Shown: positions 8,165 to 31,493, counted from the first letter of the stretch. The stretch is 32,000 nt of DNA from Ralstonia mojiangensis (GCF_023955645.1 NZ_JAMXHU010000008.1:21501-53500), one strand, 5' to 3'. Program-made: numbers and translations. The notes: generated by a model not told the origin, from the letters alone.

Positions 8165-8956
8165 TCACGGCTCGTCTCGTTCGGCAAGTCGGGCTGCGCC
8201 GGAGGCAACGGACGGCGTGTCGTCCTTCAGGTCCACGCCACTGCGGCCGAGCGCCAGTGCGCCTTTGAGCAGGAACACCAGCCGGTTCGCTGCCTGGTCA
8301 TAGGTCAGGCCCGCCGGCCGCACATTGGAAATGCAATTGCGCTCTGCATCCGAGCGGCCAACGCGCGGCGCGTAGGTCAGGTAAATGCCTAGGCTGTCAG
8401 GCGAACTTAACCCCGGCCGCTCACCGATCAGCATCACGACCTGCCGCGCGCGAAGCAACGCACCGATCTCATCCCCCAGCGCAACCCGGGATTGCTCGGC
8501 GATGGCGACCGGCCCGATCGACCAGCCGGCCGGCAGACGCTCACGCACGCTGCACAGCAGCGGCACGGCATGGCTTTGCACGGCCAATGCGGAGAGCCCG
8601 TCGGCAATCACGAAGACAAGGTCGAATGGCTCCGCTGGCCGCAGCGCGCCGAGTTCTGCGCGGCTGGCTTCGTCAAGCCGGCGGCCGAGATCGGGGCGGC
8701 GCAGATACTCGGCGCGATCGGCTGCCGCGCTGTGCACCGCCAGGGCCGTGAAGCCCGCCTGCCCAAGCGCGGCCGCTAAAGCTGCACGATTGAGTGGCAA
8801 GTGCACGGCATCGCGCGCCTGGGCGTGCGCCACGCCAAACGCGAGCACAGCGTCGGTCGTCTGGCTGTTGCCGGCGCGGCCCAGCGCAATGCGCGCGTCG
8901 GTGAAGGCGCGCAGGTGTGTCCATGGATTCGGCTGAACGAGGGGATATTTCGGCAT
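8165..8956 (-). CDS. eutC: Ethanolamine ammonia-lyase small (light) subunit
   Basis: From ATG 8956 the product begins MPKYPLVQPNPWTHLRAFTDARIALGRAGNS. EutC hallmarks follow (FVIADGLSALAV, MLIGERPGLSSPDSLGIYLTY, ERNCISNVRP). It starts 20 nt after the eutB stop. The track start at 9070 is an upstream extension into eutB. Confidence 0.9.
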   Translation of the reverse strand: MPKYPLVQPNPWTHLRAFTDARIALGRAGNSQTTDAVLAFGVAHAQARDAVHLPLNRAALAAALGQAGFTALAVHSAAADRAEYLRRPDLGRRLDEASRAELGALRPAEPFDLVFVIADGLSALAVQSHAVPLLCSVRERLPAGWSIGPVAIAEQSRVALGDEIGALLRARQVVMLIGERPGLSSPDSLGIYLTYAPRVGRSDAERNCISNVRPAGLTYDQAANRLVFLLKGALALGRSGVDLKDDTPSVASGAARLAERDEP

Positions 8957-13445: not shown

Positions 13446-13862
13446 TCTGGATCAATACCTCAACCACAAATGGCGTTGCCGAGCCGTTCGTAGGAGATTG
13501 CGCTGCCCTTTGGCTATTTTGGCCTGACAGGTGGGAAAGTCATCTCGTCTCGCGACGCCCACGCCATGCGCCCAATGCATCCTGTTGGTGCAACAGATTT
13601 GCGGCTACAACGTTGAGAGCGATGGAAATATGGGGCCGATCTTGCAGATCGTCACGTTTTCCCCGCCGGACTCTAACACACCCATTTAGGCTCGTAAGGC
13701 GCGGGCGAAGCCTCTGTGACGAGTGGCAGGAAACTGCAGATGTCATTTCTTTGACACTGTCTAGAGTCCGCGCTCTTGTCCCGGTTTGAGGTGCGTCAAG
13801 TCTGGTCGGTAGCCGCTGGCATCTAATGGATCGCATATTGGCAATCGTTTGACGCCCCAACT

Positions 13863-15611
13863 ATGCGCACCGCCCCCGTGCCGTCTTCACCAACTGCAGA
13901 ACAGATCGATCTGCCGTTTCACGCTGCTCTTGCCCGCACATCGAATTCGCTGTCCCTCGCATCAATGCAGCTGGCGTTGCTCGACTGGGCACTGCATCTC
14001 GCCGTCTCGCCAGGCAAGAGGCTGGATCTGTGCCGCCTGGCGCTGACGCAGGCCGAACAACTCGAGCGTTACATCCGGGACTGTATGGCGTCCGGCCCTC
14101 AGGACGTGTGTCTTTGCGTCCAGCCGCCGGCCCATGACCGTCGTTTCTTGGCTGACGAGTGGCGCTTGTGGCCGTTCAACGTGCTGCACCAGTCCTTCCT
14201 GTTGACGGAGCAATGGTGGGAGGCGGCCACACGCGGCGTGTGGGGCGTCGCCAAGCATCATGAAGACGTGGTTGCCTTTGCTGCGCGTCAATGGCTCGAC
14301 ATGATGTCGCCAGGCAACCAGTTGGCAACCAACCCCATTGTCTTGCGTCGGACCTTTGAACAGCACGGTACCAATCTCGTGCGCGGCGCACTCAATGCGC
14401 TTGACGATCTGGAGCGCTCCATGAGCGGCGCGCCGGCCGCCGGCACCGAAGGTTTTATGGTGGGCCGCGACGTGGCCATCACGCCCGGCAAGGTGGTCCT
14501 GCGCAACCGCCTGATCGAGCTGATCCAGTACGCGCCGGCCACGAACAAGGTCCAGGCCGAGCCCATCCTGATCGTGCCGGCATGGATCATGAAGTACTAC
14601 ATCCTGGATCTGTCACCGCAGAACTCGCTGATCCGCTATCTGGTAGAGCAGGGCCATACCGTGTTCTGCATCTCCTGGAAAAACCCCGATGAGGCTGATC
14701 GCGCCCTCGACATGGATGACTACCTCAAGCTCGGTGTCTTTGCCGCGCTCGATGCCGTCAATGCCATCGTGCAGGGCCAGCGCGTCCACGCCACCGGTTA
14801 CTGCCTTGGCGGCACGTTATTGGCCATTGCAGCGGCTGCCATGGCGCGCGATGGCGATGCGCGGTTGGCATCCATGACGCTCTTTGCCGCGCAGACAGAC
14901 TTTTGCGAGCCGGGCGAACTCGGCCTGTTCATCGACGAGGCACAGGTCAGTCTGTTGGAAGCGCAGATGGAGCAAACCGGCTATCTACGCGCCAGCCAGA
15001 TGGCCGGAGCCTTCCAGATGCTGCGCTCGTACGACTTGCTGTGGTCGCGTGTGGTGGGTGAATACCTGCTGGGCGATCGCGCACCGATGAACGATCTGAT
15101 GGCCTGGAACGCCGATGCCACGCGCATGCCCGCGCGGATGCACAGCCAGTATCTCCGGCATCTGTTCCTGAACGACGACCTGAGCGAGGGCCGCTACCCC
15201 GTCAACGGAAAGCCGGTGGCCCTCAACGACATCGACTTGCCCATCTTCGTGGTGGGCACGCTGACCGACCACGTGGCGCCATGGCGCTCGGTCTACAAGC
15301 TGCATCACCTGACCGAGGCGGAGCTGACGTTCGTATTGACCAGCGGCGGCCACAACGCCGGCATTGTCAGCCCGCCGGCCAACTCGCACCGGCGGTTCCA
15401 GATGCAGACACGTAACGTCGGCGAGGTATCGGTGGCGCCGGATGATTGGTTGGCATCGGCACCCACCACCGACGGTTCATGGTGGCCGGCATGGCATGCA
15501 TGGCTGGTCGCGCATGCATCGGGCCCCGCACCGGTGAAGCCACCGAAGATGGGCGCCCCGGCACTGCCGCCACTGGCGGACGCGCCGGGCGCCTACGTGC
15601 TGGAGAAATAA
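13863..15611 (+). CDS. phaC: Poly(3-hydroxyalkanoate) synthase, class-I-type PhaC
   Basis: The 582-aa ORF has the lipase-box Cys (ATGYCLGGTLL), a catalytic Asp context (VVGTLTDHVAPW) and a catalytic His (LTSGGHNAGIVSPP). An N-terminal PhaC_N-like region is present. Confidence 0.9.
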   Translation: MRTAPVPSSPTAEQIDLPFHAALARTSNSLSLASMQLALLDWALHLAVSPGKRLDLCRLALTQAEQLERYIRDCMASGPQDVCLCVQPPAHDRRFLADEWRLWPFNVLHQSFLLTEQWWEAATRGVWGVAKHHEDVVAFAARQWLDMMSPGNQLATNPIVLRRTFEQHGTNLVRGALNALDDLERSMSGAPAAGTEGFMVGRDVAITPGKVVLRNRLIELIQYAPATNKVQAEPILIVPAWIMKYYILDLSPQNSLIRYLVEQGHTVFCISWKNPDEADRALDMDDYLKLGVFAALDAVNAIVQGQRVHATGYCLGGTLLAIAAAAMARDGDARLASMTLFAAQTDFCEPGELGLFIDEAQVSLLEAQMEQTGYLRASQMAGAFQMLRSYDLLWSRVVGEYLLGDRAPMNDLMAWNADATRMPARMHSQYLRHLFLNDDLSEGRYPVNGKPVALNDIDLPIFVVGTLTDHVAPWRSVYKLHHLTEAELTFVLTSGGHNAGIVSPPANSHRRFQMQTRNVGEVSVAPDDWLASAPTTDGSWWPAWHAWLVAHASGPAPVKPPKMGAPALPPLADAPGAYVLEK

Positions 15612-17135
15612 ATGCGTGTGCAAAAGCAGCTTCGGGCGTGTGGCAGCTACGCCGGCACGCGTATGGCCGCCATGGTAGTCACCGCCACTGTGCTGGCACT
15701 GTCGGGTTGCATCTCGATGGCGCCGCCTTACGAGGCGCCCGCGTTGCCCGTGGCCCAGCACTACGACGCCGACGATGGCCGGGATGGCCTGTCAGCGTCA
15801 GCGACCGGTTGGCAGGCGTACTTTACGGACACGCGCCTGCAGGCGTTGATCGAGCAGGCGCTGGAAAACAACCGCGACCTGCGCACTGCCGTGCTGCGTG
15901 TGGAAGAGGCGCGTGCCGCGTTTGGCATCCAGCGCGCGGAGTTGTTTCCGCATCTCAATGCGCAGGCCGGCGTCAGTCGCCTGAGCATTCCGGCGGACGT
16001 AAGCCCCTTCGGCATGCCGATGCGTGTCACCCAGTACCAAGTGGGGGCCGGCGTCTCCAGTTGGGAGATCGATTTCTGGGGACGCGTACGCAACCTCAAC
16101 GAGGCCGCACTGGAAAGCTATGTGGCATCCGACGCCGCACGCCGTGCGGTAGCGCTTGGGCTGATCGCGCAAGTGGCCGACAGCTATCTGGTGCTGCGTG
16201 AACTCGACGAGCGCATCGCGCTGGCACAACAAACCGTGGATAGCCGGACCGAAACACTGCGCATCTTCTCGCGCCGCGTGGCGGTGGGCGCGACGTCAAG
16301 ATTGAACCAAACGCAGGTCGAGACCCTGCTGACCCAGGCGCAGGCGCTGCTAACGCAATTGCAGCAGGCGCGCGACGCGCAGGCGCACGGCCTGGCCTTG
16401 CTTGTCGGCAAACCAATCGACCTGCCGCCGGTCTCCGAGCCACTTGACGAGCACCGCATGCTGGCCGAACTGCGCGCAGGCCTGCCTTCCGACCTGCTGA
16501 CGCAGCGCCCGGACATTGCCGCCGCGGAGCACCGGCTGCGTGCTGCGCACGCCAGCATCGGCGCGGCACGGGCCGCTTTCTTTCCCCGAGTGGCACTGAC
16601 CGGCGCTTACGGCACGCTGGGTCCGGAACTGGGCAACCTGTTTGCGCCCGGCACACGCGCCTGGGTATTTGCGCCGAGTATCAGCCTCCCGCTCTTTGAA
16701 GGTGGAAAGCTGCGCAGCAACCTCGACCTGGCAGAAGCCCGCCGAGACCTTGCCGTGGCCGGTTACGAGAAGATCGTGCAGAGCGCATTCCGCGACGTGT
16801 CCGACGCGCTCTCTGCACGCAAGTGGCTGGCCGACCAACTCGACATTGCGAAGGCCGCACTGGCGGCACAAACCGAACGCGCGCGGCTGTCGCAACTACG
16901 TTTCGACGCTGGAGCATCGACGTTCCTGGAGGTGCTCGACGCCCAGCGCGACCTACTGGCCGCGCAGCAGCAACTGGTGCAGGTACGCCGTGCGCTTCTC
17001 TCTAGCCGCGTTGGCCTGTATGCCGCACTGGGTGGCGGCACGCAGGCCGTCGAATCCGAATCTGATCTGCAACCTCACCTGAGCCTGACGCCGCCCCCGC
17101 GCGTATCGGGCGTATCGGGCGGAACAACACCATGA
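15612..17135 (+). CDS. Efflux outer-membrane factor lipoprotein (NodT/OprM family)
   Basis: It has a lipobox (VLALSGCIS), then AQHYD...WQAYFTDTRLQALIEQALENNRDLRTAVLRVEEARA and a duplicated OEP repeat. The ATG directly abuts the phaC stop (TAAATG). An alternative start is ATG 15663. Confidence 0.9.
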   Translation: MRVQKQLRACGSYAGTRMAAMVVTATVLALSGCISMAPPYEAPALPVAQHYDADDGRDGLSASATGWQAYFTDTRLQALIEQALENNRDLRTAVLRVEEARAAFGIQRAELFPHLNAQAGVSRLSIPADVSPFGMPMRVTQYQVGAGVSSWEIDFWGRVRNLNEAALESYVASDAARRAVALGLIAQVADSYLVLRELDERIALAQQTVDSRTETLRIFSRRVAVGATSRLNQTQVETLLTQAQALLTQLQQARDAQAHGLALLVGKPIDLPPVSEPLDEHRMLAELRAGLPSDLLTQRPDIAAAEHRLRAAHASIGAARAAFFPRVALTGAYGTLGPELGNLFAPGTRAWVFAPSISLPLFEGGKLRSNLDLAEARRDLAVAGYEKIVQSAFRDVSDALSARKWLADQLDIAKAALAAQTERARLSQLRFDAGASTFLEVLDAQRDLLAAQQQLVQVRRALLSSRVGLYAALGGGTQAVESESDLQPHLSLTPPPRVSGVSGGTTP

Positions 17136-18205
17136 CTACGACTCCCCGACAACGATGGATTGCGCTGCTGGCGGCCGCCCTGGTGATGGCTGGCGGAGCG
17201 TTCGCGTGGAAGGCTTTACGGCAAGAGGGCCCCGGCAAGGGCTTTGCGAGCGGCAATGGCCGCATCGAGGCCACAGAAATCGATGTGGCCACCAAGCTGC
17301 CTGGCCGCGTGCAGGACATTCTGGTGGACGAGGGCGACTTCGTGACGGCCGGCCAGCCGCTTGCGCACATGCAGGTGCAGACGCTGGAAGCGCAACGCGA
17401 CGAGGCCCTGGCGCGGCAGCAGCAAGCGGTCTCTGCCGTGGCGAGTGCGCAGGCCCAGGTGGCCGTGCGAGAGGCCGATCGGCAGGCTGCGCTGGCGCAG
17501 ATTGCCCTGCGCGAGAGCGACCTGGATGCCGCTCAGCGGCGGCTGGCGCGTTCTGAAACGCTGTCGCACGAAGGCGCTTCGTCAATGCAGGAGCTGGACG
17601 ACGACCGCGCCCGCGTGCGCAGCGCCAAGGCCGCGCTGGTGGCGGCCCGCGCGCAAGCCGAGGCCGCGCAGGCGGCCGTGCTGGCCGCTCATACGCAGGT
17701 GGCCGGCGCCGGTTCCACCGTCAAGGCAGCAGACGCAACCGTATTGCGCATCAAGGCCGATATTGACGACAGCGCCTTGACGGCCCCGCGCGACGCCCGT
17801 GTGCAATACCGCATTGCCCAGCCCGGTGAGGTGCTGGCCGGCGGCGGGCGGCTGCTCAACCTCGTGGATCTTTCCGACGTCTACATGACCTTTTTCGTGC
17901 CGGAGACGGACGCGGGCCGCATCGCCATGGGCAGCGAGGTGCGTATCGTGCTGGACGCTGCGCCGCAATACGTGATTCCGGCGCGCGTGTCCTTTGTGGC
18001 CAGCACCGCGCAATTCACGCCCAAGACCGTGGAGACGGCCAGCGAGCGCCAGAAGCTGATGTTCCGCGTGAAGGCGCAGATCGATCGCGATCTGCTGCGT
18101 AAGCACTTGAAGCTGGTGAAGACCGGCCTGCCCGGCATGGCGTGGCTCAAGCTCGACACGCAGGCCGAATGGCCGGCCGCCCTGGCGATCAAGGTCCCGC
18201 AGTGA
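17132..18205 (+). CDS. HlyD-family membrane fusion (periplasmic adaptor) protein, YhiI-like
   Basis: The 357-aa ORF has an N-terminal TM anchor, [20 protein letters not shown], a long Ala/Gln-rich coiled coil and a C-terminal barrel. Its start overlaps the OMF stop (ATGA). Confidence 0.9.
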
Positions 18206-20985
18206 CGCGGTCTGCCGAGCCATCCCCCTTGCATGAGGTGCCCCTCGCGGCGCCGGTGGCGAGCCTTGCCGGCGTGAGCCTGCGCTACCGCAAGACGCTG
18301 GCGCTGGATGGCGTCACGCTTGACCTGCCTGGCGGCTGCATGGTCGGGCTGATCGGTCCGGACGGCGTGGGCAAGTCCAGCCTGCTGTCATTGGTGGCCG
18401 GCGCGCGTGCCCTGCAGGACGGTGCGGTACATGTGCTGGGCAGCGACATGGGCGACCACCGTGCGCGCGCGGCGGTCGGCCCACGCATTGCTTACATGCC
18501 GCAAGGGTTGGGGCGCAACCTGTACCCCACGCTGTCGATCGAGGAAAACCTGCAGTTCTTCGGGCGCCTGTTCGGCCACGATGCAGCGGAGCGCCGCCGC
18601 CGCATTGATGCCCTCACGGCCAGCACCGGCCTGCGGGCGTTTCTCTCGCGGCCTGCCGGCAAGCTGTCGGGTGGCATGAAGCAGAAGCTGGCGTTGTGCT
18701 GCGCGCTGATCCACGACCCGGACCTATTGATCCTGGACGAGCCGACCACGGGCGTCGACCCGCTCTCGCGCAGGCAGTTCTGGGACTTGATTGCCAGTAT
18801 TCGCGCCACGCGCCCGGGCATGAGCGTGATCGTGGCCACCGCGTACATGGAAGAGGCCGAACGCTTCGACTGGCTGGTCGCCATGGACGCGGGGCAGGTG
18901 CTCGCCACCGGCACACCGGCTGGCCTGCGCAGCCGTGCGGGTACCGATTCCCTCGAGGCCGCCTTCATTGCACTGCTTCCGCTGACGCGCCGGCAGGGGC
19001 ATCACGCCGTGGTCGTGCCGCCCCTGGTGGCCGGTGCAGAAGACGATGTTGCGGTGCAAGCGAACGGCCTGACCATGCGCTTTGGTGATTTTGTCGCGGT
19101 CGACCACGTCGACTTCCGCATCCGTCGTGGAGAGATCTTCGGCTTTCTCGGCTCGAACGGCTGCGGCAAATCGACCACCATGAAGATGCTCACCGGCCTG
19201 CTGCCTGCCAGCGAGGGCCAGGCGTGGCTGTTTGGCCATCCGGTCGACCCGAAAGACATCGACACACGCCGCCGCGTGGGGTACATGTCGCAGGCGTTCT
19301 CGCTGTATGGCGAGCTGACCGTGCGTCAGAACCTTGTGCTGCATGCGCGTCTGTTCCAGGTGCCCGAAGCCGAGGTGCAGTCGCGTGCGGCTGAGATGCT
19401 GACCCGCTTCGGCCTGCAGGAGGTGTCCGACAGCCTGCCTCAGAGCTTGCCGCTGGGCATGCGGCAGCGTTTGTCGCTGGCGGTGGCGATGGTGCACAAG
19501 CCGGAGCTGCTGATTCTGGATGAGCCGACCTCGGGCGTGGACCCGGTCGCGCGCGATATGTTCTGGCGCCTGATGATCGACCTCGCACGGCGGGATCGCG
19601 TGACCATCTTCATCTCCACGCACTTCATGAACGAGGCCGAGCGATGCGACCGCATCTCGCTCATGCACGCCGGCCGGGTGCTGGTAAGTGATGCGCCCGC
19701 TGCGCTGGTGCGCGCTCGCGGCACGCAGACGCTGGAGCAGGCGTTCGTAGTCTATCTGCAGGAGGCTGCCGAAGCGTCTGCGGGCACCGACGAGGTTGCT
19801 GCGCCGCTGCCGGTGCGCACGGCGGCGGCCAGCGCACCTGCCGGCATACCCGCCCGCCGCCGCTTCAGTCTTGCGCGCGCATTGAGCTATTCGCAACGTG
19901 AGGCGCTGGAGCTGCGCCGCGACCGCGTGCGCGCCACGCTGGCGCTGCTGGGCACGGCCATCCTTATGTTCATCATCGGATATGGCATCAGCCTGGACGT
20001 GGAGAACCTGACCTACGCCGTGCTGGACCGCGACCAGACCGTGCTCTCGCACGACTACACGCTCAACCTGGCGGGCTCGCGTTATTTCATCGAAAAACCC
20101 CCAATTCGCGACTACGCTGAGTTGGACCGCCGCATGCGCAACGGCGAGTTGTCGCTGGCGATTGAAATCCCGCCTGGCTTTGCACGCGACGTGGAACGCG
20201 GCGCGGCTGTCCAGATCGGTGCCTGGGTGGACGGTGCCATGCCCACCCGCGCCGAAACCGTGCGCGGTTACGTGCAGGCCATCCACCAGCTTTGGCTTGC
20301 GGATACTGCGGTGCACCGGCTGGGGGTGCGTCTGGCGGCGCCCAGCAGCATCGAAACGCGCTATCGCTACAACCCCGACGTGAGAAGCCTGCCTGCCATG
20401 GTGCCCGCCGTGATTCCGATGCTGCTGATGATGATTCCCGCCATGCTGGCGGCGTTGTCGGTGGTGCGCGAAAAGGAGTTGGGCTCCATCATTAATTTCT
20501 ACGTGACACCGGTCACTCGCGCGGAGTTCGTGCTTGGAAAGCAGTTGCCGTATATCGTGCTCGCCATGCTGAACTTCCTCTTGCTGGCACTGCTGGCAGT
20601 GACGGTGTTCGGTGTGCCGATCAAGGGCAGCTTTGCGACGCTCGCGTTGGGGGCGCTGATCTTCGTGACGTGTTCGACAGGTTTCGGGCTGTTTGCGTCC
20701 ACCTTCACGCAAAGCCAGATCGCGGCCATGTTCGTCACCATGATCGGCACGATCATTCCGTGCGTGCAATTTGCAGGGCTGCTCAATCCCGTGTCGTCGC
20801 TGGAAGGAGCGGGGGCCATGATCGGGCGTGTGTATCCCGCCACGCACTTCCTGACCATCAGCCGGGGCGTCTTCAGCAAGGCGCTGGATATGGGGGCGTT
20901 GGGCAGCGCCTTCTGGCCGCTCCTGGCGGCGGTGCCGGTCATCCTGGGCGCCACCTTGCTAATGCTGCGCAAGCAGGATCGGTAG
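18202..20985 (+). CDS. Fused ABC protein: two ATPase domains plus a C-terminal ABC-2 permease (RbbA/YhiH-like)
   Basis: Two Walker A motifs ([18 protein letters not shown]), two ABC signatures ([16 protein letters not shown]) and two Walker B motifs (LLILDEPT twice) are followed by six predicted TM helices. I prefer GTG 18202, which overlaps the HlyD stop (GTGA), over the track start at 18142. Confidence 0.9.
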
Positions 20986-20997
20986 GAGAGCCACGCC

Positions 20998-22149
20998 ATG
21001 CCGAGCCTTCAAGCTGATCGACGCACCGCCCGCCTGAATAACATCTTCCGCCTTGGTATCAAGGAGCTGCGAAGCCTGGCGCGCGACTCGATGATGCTGG
21101 TGTTGATCGTCTACACCTTCACCCTGTCGATCTACGTGGCGGCAACCGCCATGCCAGAGAGCCTGCACAATGCCTCGATCGCCATCGTTGATGAAGACAG
21201 CTCGCCGCTGTCGGCGCGCATTGTCTCGAGCTTCTATCCTCCGCATTTCCGCACGCCTGCGTTGATTCCGCTCACGGAGGTGGACCCGGGCATGGACAGC
21301 GGCCGCTATACGTTCGTGCTCGATATCCCGCCCAACTTCCAGCGCGATGTGCTGGCCGGACGCGCACCGTCCATCCAGCTCAACATCGACGCCACGCGGA
21401 TGAGCCAGGCCTTTACCGGCAACGGTTACATCCAGCAGATCGTTTCGGGCGAGGTGAGCACCTTCCTGCAGCGCCACCGCGCCGCGCCCGCCACACCGGT
21501 CGACCTGGTGCTGCGCACGCGCTTCAACCCCAACCTGGAGCAGACGTGGTTCGGCTCGTTGATGGAGATCATCAACAACGTCACCATGCTGTCGATCATC
21601 CTGACCGGCGCCGCACTCATCCGCGAACGCGAGCACGGCACGATCGAGCACCTGCTGGTGATGCCAGTCACGCCATTCGAGATCATGGTGTCCAAGGTCT
21701 GGTCGATGGGACTGGTGGTGGTGTTCGCCGCGCTGGTGGCGCTGGTGTTCGTGGTGCAGGGCGCGCTGCATGTACCGATCGAAGGCTCGATCCTGCTGTT
21801 CATGCTGGTGGCCACGCTGCATCTGTTTGCCACGACCTCCATGGGGATCTTTCTTGCGACGGTGGCGCGGTCCATGCCGCAGTTCGGCATGCTGCTGGTC
21901 CTGGTGCTGCTGCCACTGCAGTTGCTCTCGGGCGGCACCACCCCGCGCGAGAGCATGCCCAGCGTGGTGCAGGACATCATGCTGGCCGCGCCGACCACGC
22001 ATTTTGTATCGGCGTCGCAAGCCATTCTTTATCGCGGTGCGGGGCTCGAGGTCGTGTGGCCGCAATGTCTGGCCATCTGCGTCATCGGCACCGTGCTGTT
22101 TGTCGCATCATTGACGCGCTTTCGCCAAACCATCAGCCAGATGGCATAA
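20998..22149 (+). CDS. ABC-2 type transporter permease (YhhJ-like)
   Basis: The 383-aa ORF has an N-terminal TM, a large periplasmic loop and a C-terminal ABC-2 membrane domain. An AGGAGA RBS lies 12 nt after the preceding stop. Confidence 0.9.
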   Translation: MPSLQADRRTARLNNIFRLGIKELRSLARDSMMLVLIVYTFTLSIYVAATAMPESLHNASIAIVDEDSSPLSARIVSSFYPPHFRTPALIPLTEVDPGMDSGRYTFVLDIPPNFQRDVLAGRAPSIQLNIDATRMSQAFTGNGYIQQIVSGEVSTFLQRHRAAPATPVDLVLRTRFNPNLEQTWFGSLMEIINNVTMLSIILTGAALIREREHGTIEHLLVMPVTPFEIMVSKVWSMGLVVVFAALVALVFVVQGALHVPIEGSILLFMLVATLHLFATTSMGIFLATVARSMPQFGMLLVLVLLPLQLLSGGTTPRESMPSVVQDIMLAAPTTHFVSASQAILYRGAGLEVVWPQCLAICVIGTVLFVASLTRFRQTISQMA

Positions 22150-22158
22150 GGAGCCAAC

Positions 22159-22665
22159 ATGGATACACCTGCCAACGTGCCTCTCGCGCTCCAAAAGGCG
22201 CAGATCGCATTCGGATTGCAGGCATTGGGTCTGCTCAAGACAACACGGCAGCACTGGTATGCACTGGGCGCCGAGTTGCTCGCCCAAGACGTCGCCCGCA
22301 CCGAGTCTGCGCTGGCCGACCTGCAAAGCGTCGAGGACTGGAGCGCGTTTGCAGCACTGCTGCCCAACGCATTTTGGCAGGCCAGCCAGCGCACCATGGA
22401 TGTACTGCAAGGCGTGCTGCAGACGGCCATCTCGAACCAGTCGAGCCTCGTGGCGGATTACCAGCGCGTCATGCTGGAATGGCAACAGGCTTCCGTACGC
22501 GCGTTGAGCACGACCGGCAACGCCATGCCGGTCCATACAGCGCTGCAGGGCATGCTATCGGCGTGGGGCGTGCCGGGCGATGCATTGCTCCGCTCTGCAA
22601 CCGAGCGCTCAAATCCTGTCCGTACACCCGGCAAGGGCAACGGTCAGCTTCACAAAGCTTCCTGA
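22159..22665 (+). CDS. Hypothetical protein, tentatively phasin-family-like (PHA-granule-associated)
   Basis: The 168-aa ORF has a perfect AAGGAG RBS and lies 9 nt after the previous stop. It is predicted all-helical and Q/A/L-rich (LALQKAQIAFGLQALGLL...LADLQSVEDWSAFAALLPNAFWQASQRTMDVLQG), reminiscent of Phasin_2 proteins. The functional call rests only on composition and context. Confidence 0.55.
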   Translation: MDTPANVPLALQKAQIAFGLQALGLLKTTRQHWYALGAELLAQDVARTESALADLQSVEDWSAFAALLPNAFWQASQRTMDVLQGVLQTAISNQSSLVADYQRVMLEWQQASVRALSTTGNAMPVHTALQGMLSAWGVPGDALLRSATERSNPVRTPGKGNGQLHKAS

Positions 22666-22674
22666 CGAACACAC

Positions 22675-24120
22675 ATGGGCCCCGATCATCTGCCTGTACC
22701 GCCGGCGTTGCTACCGGCCGGCGATCTGAGCGTGGTGCGCAATCGCACCTTTGACGAAATTGCCATTGGCGACACGGTTGCCATCCTGCGCACGCTCACA
22801 GCGGAGGACATCCAACTTTTTGCCGTGTTGTCAGGGGACGTCAACCCGCAGCACCTGGATCCTGAGTTTGCCGCGTCCACGCGCTTTCACGGTGTGATTG
22901 CCCACGGCATGCTGGGCGGAGCGCTTATTTCCGCTTTGCTCGGCACGCGTTTGCCGGGGCCGGGAACGATCTACCTTGGGCAGACGCTGAGGTTCCTTGC
23001 ACCGGTGCGCATTGGCGACACCTTGACCATTCGCGTGACGGTGGTCAGCAAGGAGGATGAGAGAAAGCGGCTCAAGCTGGCATGCACGTGTACAAACGAC
23101 AGCGGCACAGTGGCCATCACGGGCGAGGCAGAGGTCATCGCGCCCACCGAGCGGATCGAGCGTCCGCGCACCACGCTGCCGGATGTGCGGATCACCACCG
23201 GCAGCGATGGCATCCATCGGTTGCTCGACCATGTGCGGCCTCTTGGTGCGATTCGTATGGCCATCGTCCACCCGTGCGATGCGCTGAGCCTTTCTGGCGT
23301 GATGGATGCGCATGCTGAAGGGCTGATCGTGCCTTGCCTCGTCGCCCCGTATGCCAAGCTGATGCGTGTAGCCGCCGAAGCCGGCCTCGACCTCAGCGGC
23401 ATCGAGATCGAAGACGTGCCGCACAGCAGTGCCGCTGCCACTCGCGCGGTGGAGCTTGTGACGCAGGGCAGGGCAGAGGCGCTGATGAAAGGCAGCCTGC
23501 ATACCGACGAGTTGATGGCGGCGGTGGTGCGCGAGGAGGCCGGACTGCGCACCAAACGTCGGATCAGCCATTGCTTCCTGATGCAGTCGCCCGCGTATCC
23601 GCGCCCGTTTATCGTGACGGATGCCGCCATCAACATCGCGCCGACCCTGGATCAAAAGGCTGACATCGTCCGCAACGCCATCGACCTGGCCCATGCGATC
23701 GGCGTTGAACGGCCTCGGGTGGCGATCCTTGCTGCGGTCGAGACCGTGAACCCGCGCATGCCTGCCACGCTCGATGCGGCCGCGCTATGCAAGATGGCGG
23801 ACCGCGGCCAGATTGAGGGCGGAGTGCTGGACGGGCCACTGGCTTTCGACAATGCGGTATCGGCTGCTGCCGCGCGCATCAAAGGCATTGTTTCGGAAGT
23901 GGCAGGGCAGGCCGATGTGCTGGTGGTGCCCGATCTGGAAAGCGGCAACATGCTCGCCAAACAGTTGGAATACCTGGGTGGCGCAGCCAGCGCAGGCATT
24001 GTGCTCGGCGCCCGCGTGCCCATTGTTTTGACCAGCCGCGCCGACTCGCGCGAATCGCGCATCGCGTCGTGCGCCCTTGCCACGTTGCTGGCCCACCGCT
24101 ACCGCAATCTACCGCCATGA
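22675..24120 (+). CDS. pta: Bifunctional MaoC-like (R)-specific enoyl-CoA hydratase / phosphate acetyl(butyryl)transferase
   Basis: The N-terminal hot-dog MaoC domain (FAVLSGDVNPQHLDPEFAASTRFHGVIAHGM) is fused to a PTA_PTB domain (AIVHPCD...MKGSLHTDELM...VLVVPDLESGNMLAKQL...TSRADS). It is 481 aa. Confidence 0.9.
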   Translation: MGPDHLPVPPALLPAGDLSVVRNRTFDEIAIGDTVAILRTLTAEDIQLFAVLSGDVNPQHLDPEFAASTRFHGVIAHGMLGGALISALLGTRLPGPGTIYLGQTLRFLAPVRIGDTLTIRVTVVSKEDERKRLKLACTCTNDSGTVAITGEAEVIAPTERIERPRTTLPDVRITTGSDGIHRLLDHVRPLGAIRMAIVHPCDALSLSGVMDAHAEGLIVPCLVAPYAKLMRVAAEAGLDLSGIEIEDVPHSSAAATRAVELVTQGRAEALMKGSLHTDELMAAVVREEAGLRTKRRISHCFLMQSPAYPRPFIVTDAAINIAPTLDQKADIVRNAIDLAHAIGVERPRVAILAAVETVNPRMPATLDAAALCKMADRGQIEGGVLDGPLAFDNAVSAAAARIKGIVSEVAGQADVLVVPDLESGNMLAKQLEYLGGAASAGIVLGARVPIVLTSRADSRESRIASCALATLLAHRYRNLPP

Positions 24121-25295
24121 ACGATTGCATCGTCGTACTGAACTGCGGCTCGTCGAGCATCAAGTTTGCAATGTTCGATGCCACCTTGCACCCATTGCCG
24201 CGTGTGCCCATGTGGAGCGGGAAAGTGGAGGGGATTGGCACTGATCACCCCACGGCGACGGAGGCTGGCGCGCCGACACAGGCGCTAGCGCTAGACAGCG
24301 CGCAGCCGTATCACGCCGCGCTCATGCACATTCGCCAGCGTGTCGAGCACAGGCTGGACGGCCGCCGCCTGATGGCTGTGGCGCATCGGGTGGTGCATGG
24401 CGGCTCCAAATACTTCGCGCCGGTACGCGTGAACGCCGATGTGCTGTCCGATCTGCGCAGCTACATTCCGCTGGCGCCGCTGCATCAGCCGTTTGCGTTG
24501 GAGGCCATCGAGGCGCTGCTGTCGGACTTGCCCGATGTGCCGCAAGTCGCGTGCTTCGATACCGCGTTCCACCGCACGCTGCCGCAGGTTGAGACGATGC
24601 TGCCGCTGCCGTACACGGCATGGGAGCGCGGTCTGCGTCGTTATGGCTTTCATGGGTTGTCGTACGAGTACATGTCGATTGCTTTGCAGGAACGGCATGG
24701 CGACATCGCACTCGGGCGAACCATCGTCGCGCACCTGGGCAGTGGCGCCAGCCTGTGTGCAATGCACGGGCTGAAGAGCGTGGCCACAACGATGGGGTTT
24801 TCCGCCCTCGATGGCCTGATGATGGGGACGCGATGTGGCGCGCTTGATCCGGGTGCAGTGCTCTACATGATGGAAACGGAGCATCTTTCCCCCACGCAGG
24901 TTGGGCACGTGCTGTATCACGAATCGGGCCTGCTTGGGGTGTCAGGGCTGTCTTCCGACCCGCGCGACATCATTGCGCACGAGGCTGACAACCCGCGCGC
25001 GCAAGCGGCGCTCGCGCTCTATGTGCGCCGGATCGTCCGCGAGATCGGCGCCTTGGTGGCAGTACTCGGCGGCCTGGATTTTCTCGTCTTCACGGCGGGT
25101 ATTGGCGAGCACAACGCCGTACTGCGCGAGCGCATTGTGGGTGGACTTGGTTATTTGGGTGCCAATCTGGATGACGAGGCCAACCAAGCGCACGCAGCAG
25201 TCATTTCCACTTCAGCGAGCCGGATTCGCGTGGCGGTAGAGCCTACAAACGAGGAGTGGGTGGCAGCACGGCATGCCGTCAAGCTGTGCTCATAA
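24117..25295 (+). CDS. ackA: Acetate (short-chain acyl) kinase
   Basis: From ATG 24117 the product begins MNDCIVVLNCGSSSIKFAMF. It also has HRVVHGG, FDTAFH, YGFHGLSYEY and FTAGIGEHN. The start overlaps the pta stop (ATGA). The track start at 24069 is an extension. Confidence 0.9.
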   Translation: MNDCIVVLNCGSSSIKFAMFDATLHPLPRVPMWSGKVEGIGTDHPTATEAGAPTQALALDSAQPYHAALMHIRQRVEHRLDGRRLMAVAHRVVHGGSKYFAPVRVNADVLSDLRSYIPLAPLHQPFALEAIEALLSDLPDVPQVACFDTAFHRTLPQVETMLPLPYTAWERGLRRYGFHGLSYEYMSIALQERHGDIALGRTIVAHLGSGASLCAMHGLKSVATTMGFSALDGLMMGTRCGALDPGAVLYMMETEHLSPTQVGHVLYHESGLLGVSGLSSDPRDIIAHEADNPRAQAALALYVRRIVREIGALVAVLGGLDFLVFTAGIGEHNAVLRERIVGGLGYLGANLDDEANQAHAAVISTSASRIRVAVEPTNEEWVAARHAVKLCS

Positions 25296-25752
25296 GGTTT
25301 TTTGGGGAAATCGCTGATTTCCAGGGCCTGCTGTCGTGTCGCGAGGATGCATCGTATTTATTTAACATAACACAAATAGGTTGAGTCCTCGATTGGCTCA
25401 ACGGCGCGGCTTCGGCGGGTGAGGGTGTCACAAAATTTGTGACACCTAGGCCGACCGCAACGAGGAGGGCGACCAGGCCGCTATGCGCCATCCTCGGTGA
25501 AAAAACTTCCCACAACGATCGCTGGCCAGCTCGTTCGGCGCGGTCAGCGTCTGCTGCCATGATGATCGGCAGCGGGTTCTCCATTCCCAGCTCGAGGGCA
25601 ACGCGCAGACATTGCTCGTTGTCCATGATTCGCAGGCCTTTCCGGTAATTGTTGACGGCACTGTGCGACCAGCCCATGTGCTCGCACAGTGCTTTGTCGG
25701 TCTTCAGGCCGTGTCGCTCGATCACGGCATCCAGGTACTTCACGCTTTTCAT
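25279..25752 (-). CDS. Prophage HTH repressor-like protein with a predicted TM segment; the ORF crosses the dif-like junction
   Basis: From ATG 25752 (RBS AAGAGGGG) the product begins MKSVKYLDAVIERHGLKTDKALCEHMGWSHSAVNNYRKGLRIMDNEQCLRVALELG, an HTH. A hydrophobic stretch (GLVALLVAVGLGVTNFV) follows. Codons ICVMLNKYD are encoded by the dif-like site. The 3' end overlaps the ackA 3' end by 17 nt. It is divergent from the phage replication genes. Confidence 0.7.
   Translation of the reverse strand: MKSVKYLDAVIERHGLKTDKALCEHMGWSHSAVNNYRKGLRIMDNEQCLRVALELGMENPLPIIMAADADRAERAGQRSLWEVFSPRMAHSGLVALLVAVGLGVTNFVTPSPAEAAPLSQSRTQPICVMLNKYDASSRHDSRPWKSAISPKNLMSTA
25360..25387 (-). other. dif-like XerC/XerD recombination site (candidate attL/attR junction)
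   Basis: The plus strand reads ATTTAACATAA-CACAAA-TAGGTTGAGTC. The first 11 nt are the exact reverse complement of the E. coli dif XerD arm (TTATGTTAAAT), followed by a 6-nt spacer. The arm at the XerC position, on the phage side, is degenerate. Confidence 0.6.
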
Positions 25753-25864: not shown

Positions 25865-26080
25865 ATGCAGCAGAGAGACCACAGGCAGCTTGACCTGGTC
25901 GGCGGCCTTCAGCACCCGCACCAGGCACAGATCCTCCACGTCCTCGGCTCCTGCCGTGACATCCACCCCAGCTATTACTGCGATCGCGACGAGGCTCTTC
26001 GTCGCATGTCTGAGCTCGTGCACAGCCACGCTGGTGCCGATGCTGAGCTGCCCGACGTTCTCGCGGATCGGTACTGCTGA
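25865..26080 (+). CDS. Prophage small hypothetical protein (71 aa), first gene of the rightward transcription unit
   Basis: An AGGGGG RBS lies 6-7 nt upstream of the ATG. Third-codon positions are strongly G/C/T-biased in this frame. Its stop overlaps the next ATG (TGATG). Confidence 0.4.
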   Translation: MQQRDHRQLDLVGGLQHPHQAQILHVLGSCRDIHPSYYCDRDEALRRMSELVHSHAGADAELPDVLADRYC

Positions 26081-26199
26081 TGCGCTGCGCCCATTTCGTT
26101 CTGTGCGTTTGGTTCTTGTTCGGCTTGCTGTGTGTTTGCGCCGGTGTCGGCCTGGCCGTTGTCGCCTTTTGCAAGGCTTTCTCTCTGGTGGTGGGCTGA
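26080..26199 (+). CDS. Prophage 39-aa hydrophobic Cys-rich miniprotein (below the ORF-track threshold)
   Basis: It translates as MRCAHFVLCVWFLFGLLCVCAGVGLAVVAFCKAFSLVVG. Both ends are TGATG overlaps, with the 71-aa ORF upstream and Rep downstream, which suggests translational coupling. Confidence 0.3.
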   Translation: MRCAHFVLCVWFLFGLLCVCAGVGLAVVAFCKAFSLVVG

Positions 26200-27302
26200 T
26201 GCGAGTCGATCTGGAAACCGGGGAGATTCTCGACCTGGAAGCAGGTGAGGGCGCCTGCCAGCCGAAGGACGGAGCGGCAGCGACGGACGAGGCGCCTGCA
26301 GGCGCTTGCCCCCCGCTACTAACAGGGGGGGAAAGTCCAAACGGAGGCAGAGCGGTCATTGACTGGCTGTCTTTCACGTTCACGGAATGGCAGGAATCGA
26401 CGCTTATGTCGATGATGCTGGCGCTGTTGTCGACCTGGTGCGGTCGAAACGTTGGTGCCGAGCCGGCGAATGGCCGTCACGGCTTCAAGCAGTCTCAGCT
26501 GCTGTACGTGTTCCACGAACACAAGTTCGTTCCTGTCGGCGTCATGGCCTGGGGCGGGGAGCAGCAGCGGGGCAGGGCATATGTCTCGCTCAACGGTACG
26601 TGGTGCAGCTTGATCGAGCCGGACATGTGGCCGGTCGTGCGCGGTTGGATTGAGTCGGTTCGCGCGACTCTCACGCGTGTTGACCTTGCAGCTGACTTCG
26701 TCAACGGTGAGTACTCGATTGAGGATGCCGTCGACTGGTATCGATCGGGCGAGTTCAATGCTGGCGGTCGTATGCCGAAGCATTCTTGCGAGGGCGATTG
26801 GCTGCATGCCAATCCGATCGGTGGTCGCACGCTGTACGTCGGAAAGCGTGGTAACGGGAAGTTCTCTCGCCTCTACGAGAAGGGCAAGCAGCTCGGCAAT
26901 GCCGACAGTCCTTGGATGCGTTTCGAGTGTGAGCTCGGCAACCGCGATCGCATTCTTCCCCACGACATCATCACTCGGCCCACGGAGTACTTCGCGGGTC
27001 AATACAAGGTGTGCGCACGCATCGTCGATGCAGCAGCTGCGCGCATTCGCACGACGAAGCTCGAAGGCGAGATCACCATCGGTCGGCTGAAAGCCGCTGT
27101 GAAAACGTCTTACGGTCGCTTCTTCCATGTGCTCCGTCTTATGACTCCCGATCACGCCAGGCTGGTCGACGAGCTCGCAGTTGAGGGCGTGCCCTCACGC
27201 CTGGCGAAGTTCGCACTACATGAGTTCCTCCACCCCAAAGCGTCAGAGACGCCAACTGAAAAAGGACCGCCACCATGGCACTCGCAACAACCTTCAACGT
27301 GA
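26199..27302 (+). CDS. Filamentous-phage replication initiation protein (Rep_trans/RstA-like)
   Basis: From ATG 26199 the product begins MRVDLETGEILDLE and contains RAVIDWLSFTFTE, the conserved DWLxxT(F) opening of rolling-circle Rep_trans proteins. YVGKRGNGKFSRLYEKGKQLG also fits. The 103 upstream codons in the track ORF (from 25890) look like non-coding GC-rich read-through. Confidence 0.8.
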   Translation: MRVDLETGEILDLEAGEGACQPKDGAAATDEAPAGACPPLLTGGESPNGGRAVIDWLSFTFTEWQESTLMSMMLALLSTWCGRNVGAEPANGRHGFKQSQLLYVFHEHKFVPVGVMAWGGEQQRGRAYVSLNGTWCSLIEPDMWPVVRGWIESVRATLTRVDLAADFVNGEYSIEDAVDWYRSGEFNAGGRMPKHSCEGDWLHANPIGGRTLYVGKRGNGKFSRLYEKGKQLGNADSPWMRFECELGNRDRILPHDIITRPTEYFAGQYKVCARIVDAAAARIRTTKLEGEITIGRLKAAVKTSYGRFFHVLRLMTPDHARLVDELAVEGVPSRLAKFALHEFLHPKASETPTEKGPPPWHSQQPST

Positions 27303-30344: not shown

Positions 30345-31493
30345 ATGCTGACACTCATCACTGGTCAACCTGGTAACGGAAAAAGTCTCTACACGATCGC
30401 CACGGTGGAGGCGAAACGCCAGGCCGAGAGTCGTCCGGTCTTCTATCACGGCATTCCTGAGCTCACGCTTCCGTGGACCAAGCTGGAGGATCCTGCGAAG
30501 TGGTACGAGTGCCCTGAGAAGTCGATCATCGTGATCGATGAGGTTCAGAAGGTCATGCCGCCGAGGCCTTCGAGCTCGAAGCCTCCGCAGCTCGTGTCGG
30601 AGCTGGAGACGCATCGGCATCGTGGGTTCGATCTGTTCTTCATGACGCAGGACCCTAGCCTGGTCGACAACCATCTGAAGAAGCTCGCCGGCGAGCATAT
30701 TCACCTGGTTCGTCAGTGGGGTCGGCAAAAGGCGGACCTGTTCAAGATGCAGAAGGTGCAGGACCCGACGAATGCGAACTTGAAGCGCGCGTTGCACAGC
30801 ACGTTTCCGTATCCGAAGCAGGTGTTCGACTGGTACAAGTCCGCCGATGCTCACACGCACAAGAAGTCGATTCCGAAGAAGTATTACCTGCTGTATGCCT
30901 TGCCGGTCTTGCTCGTCGTTGCACTGCTCGGTGGCGTATGGAAGTTGTGGAAGTTGTCGCATCCTGACCAGGTGAAGCCTGCGGCTGCAGCTGCTGCACC
31001 TGGTGCGTTACCTGGTCAGCCTGGTGTTCCTGATGCACCAGCTGCGGCACAGCGTGGTCCGATGACTGCGACGGAGTATCTCGCGAGCTATCAGCCTCGC
31101 GTCGCTGGCCTGCAGTACACGGCTCCCGCGTATGACGAGCTCACGAAGCCGTCGAGGGTGCCGGTGCCTGCCGCCTGTGTGCAGATCCGTGGTGGCTGTG
31201 AATGCTGGACGCAGCAGGGCACGCACCTGGAGACGACGCAGCAGGTGTGTGACCAGGCGGTGAAGCGTGGTTTTTTCGAGGCGTTTGAACCTGACGGTCG
31301 CGCTAGGAACCAGGAGCGTGTCCAGGTGGCGCAGCAACCCGCGTCTGCGCCCGCTGCACAGCCTCAGGAGGTTCGGATGGTGTTGGACGTCGCCAAGCCT
31401 GAGGAAAAGGCCCAGGAGCCTCGCAAACGCACGGTCATAGGGTCGGGGAGGGCTCGGCGCGTTGATGAGCTTGAAGCCTTTCCAGAGGGTTAG
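30345..31493 (+). CDS. zot: Zot-like assembly ATPase (pI homologue)
   Basis: It has an N-terminal P-loop (LITGQPGNGKSLY), Walker B (IIVIDEVQ) and a central TM (YYLLYALPVLLVVALLGGVWKLW). A periplasmic region with GGCECWTQQGTHL follows, then an Ala/Pro/Gln-rich tail. Confidence 0.9.
   Translation: MLTLITGQPGNGKSLYTIATVEAKRQAESRPVFYHGIPELTLPWTKLEDPAKWYECPEKSIIVIDEVQKVMPPRPSSSKPPQLVSELETHRHRGFDLFFMTQDPSLVDNHLKKLAGEHIHLVRQWGRQKADLFKMQKVQDPTNANLKRALHSTFPYPKQVFDWYKSADAHTHKKSIPKKYYLLYALPVLLVVALLGGVWKLWKLSHPDQVKPAAAAAAPGALPGQPGVPDAPAAAQRGPMTATEYLASYQPRVAGLQYTAPAYDELTKPSRVPVPAACVQIRGGCECWTQQGTHLETTQQVCDQAVKRGFFEAFEPDGRARNQERVQVAQQPASAPAAQPQEVRMVLDVAKPEEKAQEPRKRTVIGSGRARRVDELEAFPEG

Follow-up and report, generated by a model that had tools for sequence, protein, structure and literature searches.

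The locus described here raises the question of why the gene for a polyhydroxyalkanoate (PHA) synthase should be read together with those of a tripartite ATP-binding cassette (ABC) exporter. It occupies positions 13863 to 25295 of a 32,000-nucleotide stretch of Ralstonia mojiangensis DNA (GCF_023955645.1, NZ_JAMXHU010000008.1:21501-53500), hereafter the window, and consists of eight genes on the plus strand. The answer that we favor, with a confidence just past the even mark, is that these genes form a low-oxygen operon that splits acetyl-CoA between polyhydroxybutyrate (PHB) and acetate plus ATP, and that carries a conserved partner exporter. The eight genes would make up a single operon on a secondary replicon of this member of the pickettii/insidiosa/wenshanensis group, with a promoter of the class II FNR/Anr type, and the operon would be a fusion of two conserved modules. 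The first would comprise a PhaC2-type synthase, MaoC::Pta, AckA and a phasin, parts that also make up the core metabolism of hypoxia islands like the lxa locus of Burkholderia cenocepacia; the second would be an ABC-2 exporter of the YhiI-RbbA-YhhJ type with its own NodT channel.

Reading of the window confirmed eight plus-strand open reading frames (ORFs) where the initial annotation, made from the DNA alone, had placed them. These are phaC (13863 to 15611), followed by the genes for an outer-membrane factor (OMF; 15612 to 17135), a HlyD-family periplasmic adaptor, or membrane fusion protein (MFP; 17132 to 18205), RbbA (18202 to 20985), the permease YhhJ (20998 to 22149), a 168-aa phasin-like protein (22159 to 22665), the MaoC::Pta fusion (22675 to 24120) and AckA (24117 to 25295). 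The junctions were likewise as annotated: the TAA stop of phaC abuts the ATG of the OMF gene (15611/15612), the OMF and adaptor genes overlap as ATGA (17132-17135), the adaptor gene and rbbA as GTGA (18202-18205), and pta and ackA as ATGA (24117-24120). The remaining three intergenic spacers are of 12, 9 and 9 nt. Good ribosome-binding sites had been claimed for all of these spacers; a clear Shine-Dalgarno sequence was found in two (GGAGAG and AAGGAG) and none in the 9-nt spacer at 22666-22674 before MaoC::pta (CGAACACAC), so that translation of the fusion may be coupled to the phasin gene or may use another start. The start of rbbA is ambiguous as well. A GTG at 18142, which is the start chosen by PGAP in R. 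wenshanensis, gives 947 aa and a 64-nt overlap with the adaptor gene, and the start at 18202 gives 927 aa, the adaptor gene being overlapped with either. Both the RbbA family model and the alignment to the Escherichia coli protein start at about residue 18-19 when numbered on the 927-aa form, which favors position 18202.

A consensus scan for promoter- and terminator-like sites within the cluster returned no more of them than in shuffled sequence, and none at the junctions. The identical eight genes in identical order were also found on p56D2 of R. wenshanensis and on chromosome 2 of Ralstonia sp. R-29. Altogether, the junctions, the lack of an excess of internal sites and the gene order shared with two other Ralstonia support an operon-like organization of the array.

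The gap 5' of phaC had been noted as lower in GC and promoter-like. Its GC content is about 0.59, against about 0.64-0.69 within the cluster, and a candidate class II promoter of the FNR/Anr type, which the initial annotation had missed, was found there. An FNR/Anr/FixK-type box, TTGAGGTGCGTCAA (TTGA-N6-TCAA; 13786 to 13799, plus strand), lies 64 nt 5' of the phaC ATG, with its center 70 nt 5' of it, and is the single match to this pattern in the window, where 0.23 would be expected. A -10-like hexamer, TCTAAT (13822 to 13827, plus strand), matches TATAAT at five of six positions and has its first base 29.5 nt from the box center. Class II FNR promoters have their box centered about 41.5 nt 5' of the transcription start. 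With a start predicted at about 13834, the box would stand at -41.5, so that the spacing of box and -10 fits class II geometry around a predicted start position.

In an upstream alignment of the window, R. wenshanensis and the more diverged strain R-29, the box and the -10 stand out as conserved islands at identical spacing, with the box block reading CTTGAGGTGC[G/A]TCAAGT across the three Ralstonia and the -10 block GTGGCATCTAAT invariant. Two further blocks, ATGTC...TCTAGAG...GCTCT (13745-13775) and GCAATCGTTT[G/A]AC (13842-13855), are also conserved between the window and R-29 and could be a second regulator site or an element of the 5' untranslated region. Conservation of the box extends beyond these strains. 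Among 80 species-level loci encoding relatives of this PhaC, a box within 350 nt 5' of phaC was found in 22, compared with 1.6 expected from the local box density, and the phaC orthologue of R. solanacearum has TTGA-N6-TCAA 81 nt upstream. Sites of the FNR/Anr/FixK type have this pattern at their core, as does the reported motif of the Burkholderia lxa regulon, and phaC2 of Bradyrhizobium diazoefficiens is a FixK2 target. With a promoter of this type, the operon would be expected to be switched on as oxygen falls.

The association of phaC with the exporter was followed from both sides. In the PhaC-side sample of 80 loci, RbbA was encoded within 10 kb of phaC in 17, drawn from Beta-, Gamma- and Alphaproteobacteria and showing at least five gene arrangements. 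The co-directional order phaC-(fabI)-OMF-MFP-RbbA-YhhJ occurs in Ralstonia, Janthinobacterium, Pseudorhodoferax, Aquabacterium, Pelomonas and Pseudacidovorax, and also in the gammaproteobacteria Pseudoxanthomonas and Xanthomonas. Divergent MFP-RbbA-YhhJ and phaC-MaoC::pta-ackA units are present in Bosea, Ciceribacter and Chelatococcus; the exporter stands 3' of ackA in a Rhodospirillaceae metagenome-assembled genome (MAG), is convergent with phaC in a Xanthobacteraceae MAG, and is upstream of phaC in Ottowia and another alphaproteobacterium. Where PhaC is at least 60% identical to the query, the pump was present in 11 of 24 assessable loci.

The RbbA-side sample comprised 80 metagenome-contig loci with RbbA at 65-76% identity, 52 of which had enough upstream sequence to be assessed. 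A phaC of this type was found in 13 of the 52, directly upstream and on the same strand in nine. In three more RbbA loci, which lack phaC, the pump is directly preceded by a FabI-like gene; two of these carry MaoC::pta-ackA downstream, and the contig of the third ends too early. Unsupervised ORF clustering gave PhaC as the commonest non-exporter family near RbbA (12 loci), followed by MaoC::Pta. Neighbor counts were obtained with a crude GC3-based gene caller that misses genes and yields antisense artefacts; they are lower bounds and were cross-checked by tblastn.

These counts bear directly on whether phaC and the exporter lie together by chance, or because an efflux cassette was recently inserted in one lineage, in either case without biological meaning. 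Such an origin would suit the R. solanacearum orthologue, which adjoins neither an exporter nor pta-ackA, and the many relatives in which phaC is followed directly by MaoC::pta-ackA. A single-copy gene without linkage, however, should be found within 10 kb in far fewer than 1% of genomes, and the linkage was seen in 17 of the 80 species-level loci, the 17 being drawn from three proteobacterial classes and arranged in at least five ways, and again in 13 of the 52 RbbA loci of the independent metagenome sample. We therefore rejected chance or recent insertion, the probability of which we put close to nil. In a neighbor-joining tree of 101 RbbA sequences, those linked to phaC are spread over the whole tree, including its deepest branches, and the enterobacterial clade is uniformly without phaC linkage; half of the sequences were chosen through PhaC, so that the tree shows the breadth of the association, not its frequency. 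A specialized subclade of phaC-linked RbbAs, also considered, was rejected on the same scatter, with the same bias in sampling. The exporter block is thus no recent arrival absent in nearly all relatives, and the linkage noticed in the initial annotation is more than a one-off insertion, since it occurs in three classes and several gene orders. From these neighborhoods, the association is reciprocal and old, with the two modules as preferred neighbors of each other.

The linkage is not universal. On the R. solanacearum CFBP2957 megaplasmid (L167, 8452-17066), the phaC orthologue (77% identical) has other neighbors of the hypoxia type, namely genes for an ADP-forming acetyl-CoA synthetase/GNAT protein and a P-type ATPase, and TTGA-N6-TCAA boxes precede both phaC (at 12920) and the synthetase gene (at 8452). 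In Candidatus Accumulibacter (L164/L165, 586-5394), genes for a type III polyketide synthase (PKS), a methyltransferase, an FAD monooxygenase, an acyl carrier protein and a ketoacyl synthase precede OMF-MFP-RbbA-YhhJ. By its appearance this cluster may make an alkylresorcinol-type lipid, which hints that RbbA pumps may serve neighboring lipid synthases. The neighbors of the Herbaspirillum pump are unrelated. A divergent TetR-family regulator gene stands 5' of phaC or of the OMF gene in many loci outside Ralstonia (L008, L013, L019, L021, L085, L144, L148 and L153) and is lacking in the window.

Contexts of this kind leave room for co-regulation as the sole tie between pump and synthase. The pump would then be an exporter of general use under low oxygen or envelope stress, its substrates having no connection to PHA metabolism, and would lie beside phaC since genes of the FNR/Anr regulon tend to gather in hypoxia islands and operons. 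In agreement with this, the PhaC clade is also linked to unrelated hypoxia genes: recurrent neighbors included a P-type cation ATPase (16 loci), tandem universal stress proteins (USPs; 8 loci), a Zn alcohol dehydrogenase (7 loci) and Crp/Fnr regulators (5 loci). ADP-forming acetyl-CoA synthetase/GNAT proteins recurred as well (5 loci). These are gene types of the lxa locus and would give the neighborhoods the character of hypoxia islands. Boxes were also found 5' of RbbA operons without phaC, in 7 of 42 loci compared with 0.56 expected. E. coli has a pump 69% identical with no PHA genes nearby, Accumulibacter and Herbaspirillum show it in other contexts, and in the lxa locus the pump lies several genes off phaC, with a MacB-like pump between them in some species. 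Co-regulation by itself, on the other hand, does not account for the embedding of the pump between phaC(-fabI) and the phasin gene in Beta- and Gammaproteobacteria, nor for the rank of PhaC as top RbbA partner in the unbiased clustering, above any other hypoxia gene. RbbA as a neighbor of phaC (17-19 loci) is as frequent as FabI and more frequent than USPs. We consider co-regulation alone a strong rival, of clearly less than even probability, and continue with the reading of a low-oxygen operon that has a partner exporter.

The synthase itself (582 aa) carries the domains PhaC_N (PF07167, E 1.6e-56), Abhydrolase_1 (PF00561, E 9.9e-16) and PHBC_N (PF12551, E 1.1e-15) of a PHA synthase. The catalytic triad reported in the initial annotation is kept, with Cys314 in GYCLGG, Asp469 in TDHVAPW and His497 in GGHNAG; these motifs, and AWNAD with Trp415, all align to those of PDB 9knj. 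Against the class I model TIGR01838 the protein scored 548.4 bits, under the cut-off of 622.65, and its comparison with the catalytic domain of Cupriavidus necator PhaC1 gave 310 bits. The earlier suspicion that this paralog stands apart from canonical class I is in line with the sub-threshold score and with the literature, which names the type group D or 'class V'; the Janthinobacterium PhaC2 is there placed tentatively in 'class V'. We accordingly treat the protein as a probable non-canonical synthase of the 'group D / class V / PhaC2' type, an assignment made from gene context and names rather than from a tree. Its orthologues, labeled 'alpha/beta fold hydrolase' or 'PHA/PHB synthase family protein' by PGAP, are 88-95% identical within Ralstonia and about 70% across Burkholderiales, and relatives across Beta-, Gamma- and Alphaproteobacteria are 54-70% identical.

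The 168-aa protein matched no Pfam or NCBIfam model, even at E = 10. A jackhmmer search gathered its family in 14 loci (E 1e-28 to 1e-64), and 8 of 12 aligned members matched Phasin_2 (PF09361; best E 3.2e-8). The gene of this family lies directly 3' of yhhJ where the exporter is present and directly 3' of phaC or fabI where it is not. The label 'phasin-like' in the initial annotation thus found no backing from a match of the protein's own and was borne out by its homologues, and family homology together with gene position identify it as a probable divergent (PhaP-like) phasin. No signal peptide was found in its sequence. With the phasin gene after yhhJ, exporter operons have PHA genes on both sides of the pump.

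The MaoC::Pta fusion joins an R-specific enoyl-CoA hydratase to a phosphate acyltransferase. It scored 758.9 bits against PRK08190 (cut-off 282), contains PTA_PTB (PF01515) and MaoC_dehydratas (PF01575), and has the MaoC hydratase-2 motif FAVLSGDVNPQH intact at residue 49. Besides matching Pta models, its Pta domain scored 310-317 bits against models of phosphate butyryltransferases, so that C4 acyl groups may also pass through it. AckA, a kinase of the acetate/propionate family, has an Acetate_kinase domain (355 bits) and scored 356.1 bits against TIGR00016 (cut-off 293.4). Genes for MaoC::Pta, AckA or both were found 3' of phaC in at least 21 of the 80 loci.

Most relatives encode a FabI-like enoyl reductase of 255 aa (PF13561, 303 bits), its gene placed after phaC and before the exporter or the phasin gene; this gene was found in 18 loci overall, directly 3' of phaC in L005, L006, L007, L008, L011, L013, L019, L021, L022 and L026. 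Because the phaC stop codon abuts the OMF start, this reductase gene, which is missing from the window operon, has been lost from it. Where present, the reductase could form with MaoC::Pta and the kinase a branch from crotonyl-CoA to butyrate plus ATP.

From the established enzymology of these families we infer how the metabolic module would work. When respiration is limited, a share of the acetyl-CoA would pass through Pta and AckA to acetate, with ATP from substrate-level phosphorylation. The other share would be condensed and reduced to (R)-3-hydroxyacyl-CoA and then polymerized to polyester, which would free CoA and take up reducing power, and the MaoC domain would join the enoyl-CoA and 3-hydroxyacyl-CoA pools. 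The pump genes lie between phaC and the phasin gene, so the pump would be made together with these proteins.

The same enzymes could also be thought to run in the direction of ATP-yielding PHB mobilization, the other function proposed in the initial annotation, in which PHB would be converted through 3-hydroxybutyryl-CoA and the acyl-phosphate to 3-hydroxybutyrate, or to crotonate via MaoC, plus ATP, and the acid pumped out. C3-C4 substrates are plausible for the Pta domain and for an acetate/propionate-family kinase, the MaoC hydratase motif is intact, and a low-oxygen promoter suits a role in survival energy. The Pfam and NCBIfam assignments, however, revealed no depolymerase gene in the cluster, E. 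coli has the same pump at 69% identity and no PHB store, and the cargoes known for tripartite ABC-2/MFP/OMF systems are lipids, glycolipids, polymers and peptides, with short-chain acids not among them. By the energetics of ABC pumps, moreover, the ATP cost per cycle would cancel the one ATP gained per monomer. ATP-driven export of hydroxyacid monomers, which the initial annotation had offered as one function, would spend about what Pta-AckA gains and is unattractive, and we regard PHB mobilization as unlikely.

The exporter proper is better defined by homology. The OMF (507 aa) is a lipoprotein of the NodT family, with 410.6 bits against TIGR01845 (cut-off 210), two OEP domains and a lipobox LSGC with Cys33. 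The adaptor carries HlyD_D23 and HlyD_3, its best NCBIfam match being PRK03598. RbbA fuses two nucleotide-binding domains to an ABC-2 permease (two ABC_tran domains and ABC2_membrane_3, with two Walker A and two Walker B motifs) and scored 1577 bits against the equivalog model NF033858 (cut-off 1050), covering the full model; YhhJ has ABC2_membrane_3 and related domains. Full-length identities to the E. coli proteins are 53.6% for YhiI, 68.7% for RbbA and 65.5% for YhhJ, and the exporter is closely orthologous to the E. coli YhiI-RbbA-YhhJ ABC-2 system, with a NodT channel of its own added. No substrate of RbbA/YhhJ/YhiI was found in the literature searched, where one key paper on a 'ribosome-associated' role of RbbA has been retracted.

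ABC-2 transporters are a class that moves polymers and lipids. Since monomer export would cancel the ATP gain, and since systems of this kind typically move lipids, glycolipids and polymers, our best guess for the cargo is some product of this acyl-CoA/PHA metabolism, or a by-product of it, that is hydrophobic or amphipathic, rather than a small acid. The role of the pump is the weakest step of the proposed mechanism.

A more specific version would make the locus a machine for synthesis and export, in which the PhaC2-type synthase makes a short oligo- or poly-(3-hydroxyalkanoate) that is pumped to the envelope or medium, in parallel with the ABC-2-dependent export of capsule, O-antigen and teichoic acid polymers. 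The linkage is reciprocal and independent of gene order, synthase and phasin genes flank the pump in one operon, and the transporter class is a suitable one. Moreover, PhaC2-type enzymes do not explain granule PHB in the hosts studied, and the Accumulibacter pump beside a lipid-type PKS cluster suggests service to neighboring synthases. The phasin without a signal peptide argues against such a machine, as do the RbbA loci, most of which are without phaC, and the proposal is built from gene context. To our knowledge, every PHA synthase studied so far resides in the cytoplasm, bound to granules. We consider this version distinctly improbable, and give equally little credence to the broader proposal that PhaC2-type synthases and RbbA-YhhJ-YhiI(+OMF) form a hypoxia-induced pathway delivering 3-hydroxyalkanoate oligomers or an ester lipid to the envelope or the outside.

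Several observations weigh against a low-oxygen PHB and acetate operon with a dedicated partner exporter, which we nevertheless retain as our preferred reading. The C. necator PhaC2 (H16_A2003) is described with 'unknown physiological function', the B. diazoefficiens PhaC2 is dispensable for PHB and may be a modulator, and polymerization by PhaC2-type enzymes in their native hosts, as assumed here, is presumptive. The box differs from the full TTGAT-N4-ATCAA consensus at two positions, and the low-oxygen switching of the operon in R. mojiangensis is predicted from its promoter and by analogy with the lxa locus and with FixK2 control of B. diazoefficiens phaC2. On the side of the pump, about three quarters of the sampled RbbA loci are without phaC, and the E. 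coli operon has no dedicated OMF gene, no adjacent phaC, pta or ackA, and no box. Since E. coli RbbA is 69% identical without an adjacent phaC, the cargo need not be PHA-specific; and because most RbbA loci lack phaC and the Accumulibacter pump adjoins a PKS lipid cluster, the cargo is probably not strictly PHA-derived. Finally, no genes for USPs, Crp/Fnr regulators or P-type ATPases were found in the window, which is thus not itself an lxa-type island, and the exporter BCAM0302-0305 of the lxa locus is likened to RbbA/YhhJ by product names and architecture, not by sequence.

Orthologues of PhaC and RbbA at 88-99% identity were found in R. insidiosa, R. wenshanensis, R. condita and other Ralstonia. 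The upstream flank in the window contains dbpA, chrA, eutBC, a DAO oxidase gene and a porin gene, and R. wenshanensis 56D2 p56D2 shares upstream genes for a shikimate-DH-like protein, an MFS transporter, an IclR regulator, an HPPD-like fusion, a porin and a DAO oxidase, together with eutBC, chrA and dbpA. Homology to R. wenshanensis ends at 25318, 23 nt past the ackA stop. The downstream flank is an inovirus prophage, from 25319 to at least 32000, in which GC falls to 0.55-0.60 and which R. wenshanensis lacks at this spot. Its ORFs include Rep_trans (25890-27302) and Zot (30345-31493), and the region resembles Ralstonia inoviruses such as phage YO188_1 (79% over 59%). This downstream block is a prophage insertion, separate from the operon.

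Two puzzles meet at this locus. One is that of the widespread and conserved 'second' PHA synthases (C. necator PhaC2, B. diazoefficiens PhaC2, Burkholderia group D and Janthinobacterium 'class V'); the other is the YhiI-RbbA-YhhJ transporter, which has kept an identity of about 70% between E. coli and Ralstonia. Both are without an assigned role or substrate, and each component offers a testable clue to the function of the other. If true, an oligomer or lipid pathway would be the first physiological role for second PHA synthases and for the orphan E. coli RbbA/YhhJ family. The operon would also widen the picture drawn from lxa, of aerobes that persist without oxygen, so that it takes in Ralstonia and many more Proteobacteria. 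This is relevant to the opportunistic pathogens in the R. pickettii/insidiosa group and to PHA biotechnology where oxygen is limiting.

Comparison with known systems shows which parts of this arrangement have a precedent. The E. coli yhiI-rbbA-yhhJ operon resembles the window in gene order and in its style of 4-nt overlaps, and no TTGA-N6-TCAA box was found in the region upstream of yhiI, even with two mismatches allowed. The orfA-pta-ackA-fabI operon of Sinorhizobium meliloti (Summers et al. 1999, as cited in PMC8231600) encodes Pta, AckA and FabI that are 56-58%, 45-47% and 46-50% identical to those of Burkholderia group D1. It differs from the window in its PhoB/phosphate-stress control and in having no FNR-type box, no PhaC and no exporter.

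Closer relatives are found among the group D synthases. PMC8231600 describes a phaC-(phaJ::pta)-ackA-fabI context for subgroup D1 of Burkholderia sensu lato, and these clusters share with the window the PhaC type and the neighboring fused MaoC/PhaJ::Pta and AckA. In the portions available, published accounts of group D, class V and C. necator PhaC2 make no mention of an exporter, an FNR box or a divergent phasin. The Janthinobacterium MAG (L005), with a PhaC 68% identical, resembles the window in its order phaC-fabI-OMF-MFP-RbbA-YhhJ; the FabI-like reductase, usual among the relatives, sets it apart from the window operon. In B. thailandensis AW34-19p, a PhaC 60% identical adjoins MaoC::pta on the 304-kb plasmid p1 (L082), where MaoC::pta-phaC is accompanied by genes for a thiolase, acetate kinase, FtsH and P-type ATPases. 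This lxa-like set is broken by a group II intron reverse transcriptase, and its presence on a plasmid indicates that hypoxia modules travel on such replicons.

The closest characterized parallel is the low-oxygen-activated lxa locus itself (BCAM0275a-0323; Sass et al. 2013, PMC3721108). Like the window, it encodes a PHA synthase (BCAM0297), a phosphate acetyl/butyryl transferase (BCAM0298), an acetate kinase (BCAM0293) and an exporter of two ABC proteins, MFP and OMF (BCAM0302-0305), five genes from the synthase. All of these are induced at low oxygen, by 3.8- to 224-fold, with BCAM0297 at 224-fold (PMC3721108). The initial annotation knew of no characterized system of this kind. The lxa locus is a precedent, in that it co-induces synthase, pta, ackA and a tripartite exporter; for the pairing of PhaC with an RbbA/YhhJ system, no characterizing paper was found in the literature searched. 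The lxa genes have been suggested to serve in fermentation and to channel acetate to PHA, with the polymer acting as a sink for electrons, and the lxa regulatory motif TGA-N6-TCA, a 4-bp inverted repeat with a 6-bp spacer, resembles the window box. A transposon-sequencing (Tn-seq) study of anoxic survival used H111, a strain without lxa, and is uninformative here.

The differences are those of setting. The lxa locus is a 50-gene island with USPs, a class II ribonucleotide reductase and a P-type ATPase, and the window has the metabolic core and the pump alone in common with it. Some of the lxa homologues tabulated for B. contaminans and B. multivorans (PMC4981469) have a second tripartite exporter, consisting of an outer-membrane lipoprotein, HlyD and a MacB-like ATPase plus permease. 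It separates the PHA genes from the BCAM0302-0304 pump and is induced too. The lxa pump lies several genes from phaC; that of the window lies inside the phaC operon. The phaC-(phaJ::pta)-ackA(-fabI) cluster and the lxa co-induction of synthase, pta, ackA and exporter are thus already known. What the Ralstonia locus adds is a pump embedded in a PhaC2-type operon and a broad reciprocal association of the two, a conserved promoter of the class II FNR type, and the recognition of the 168-aa gene as one for a divergent phasin.

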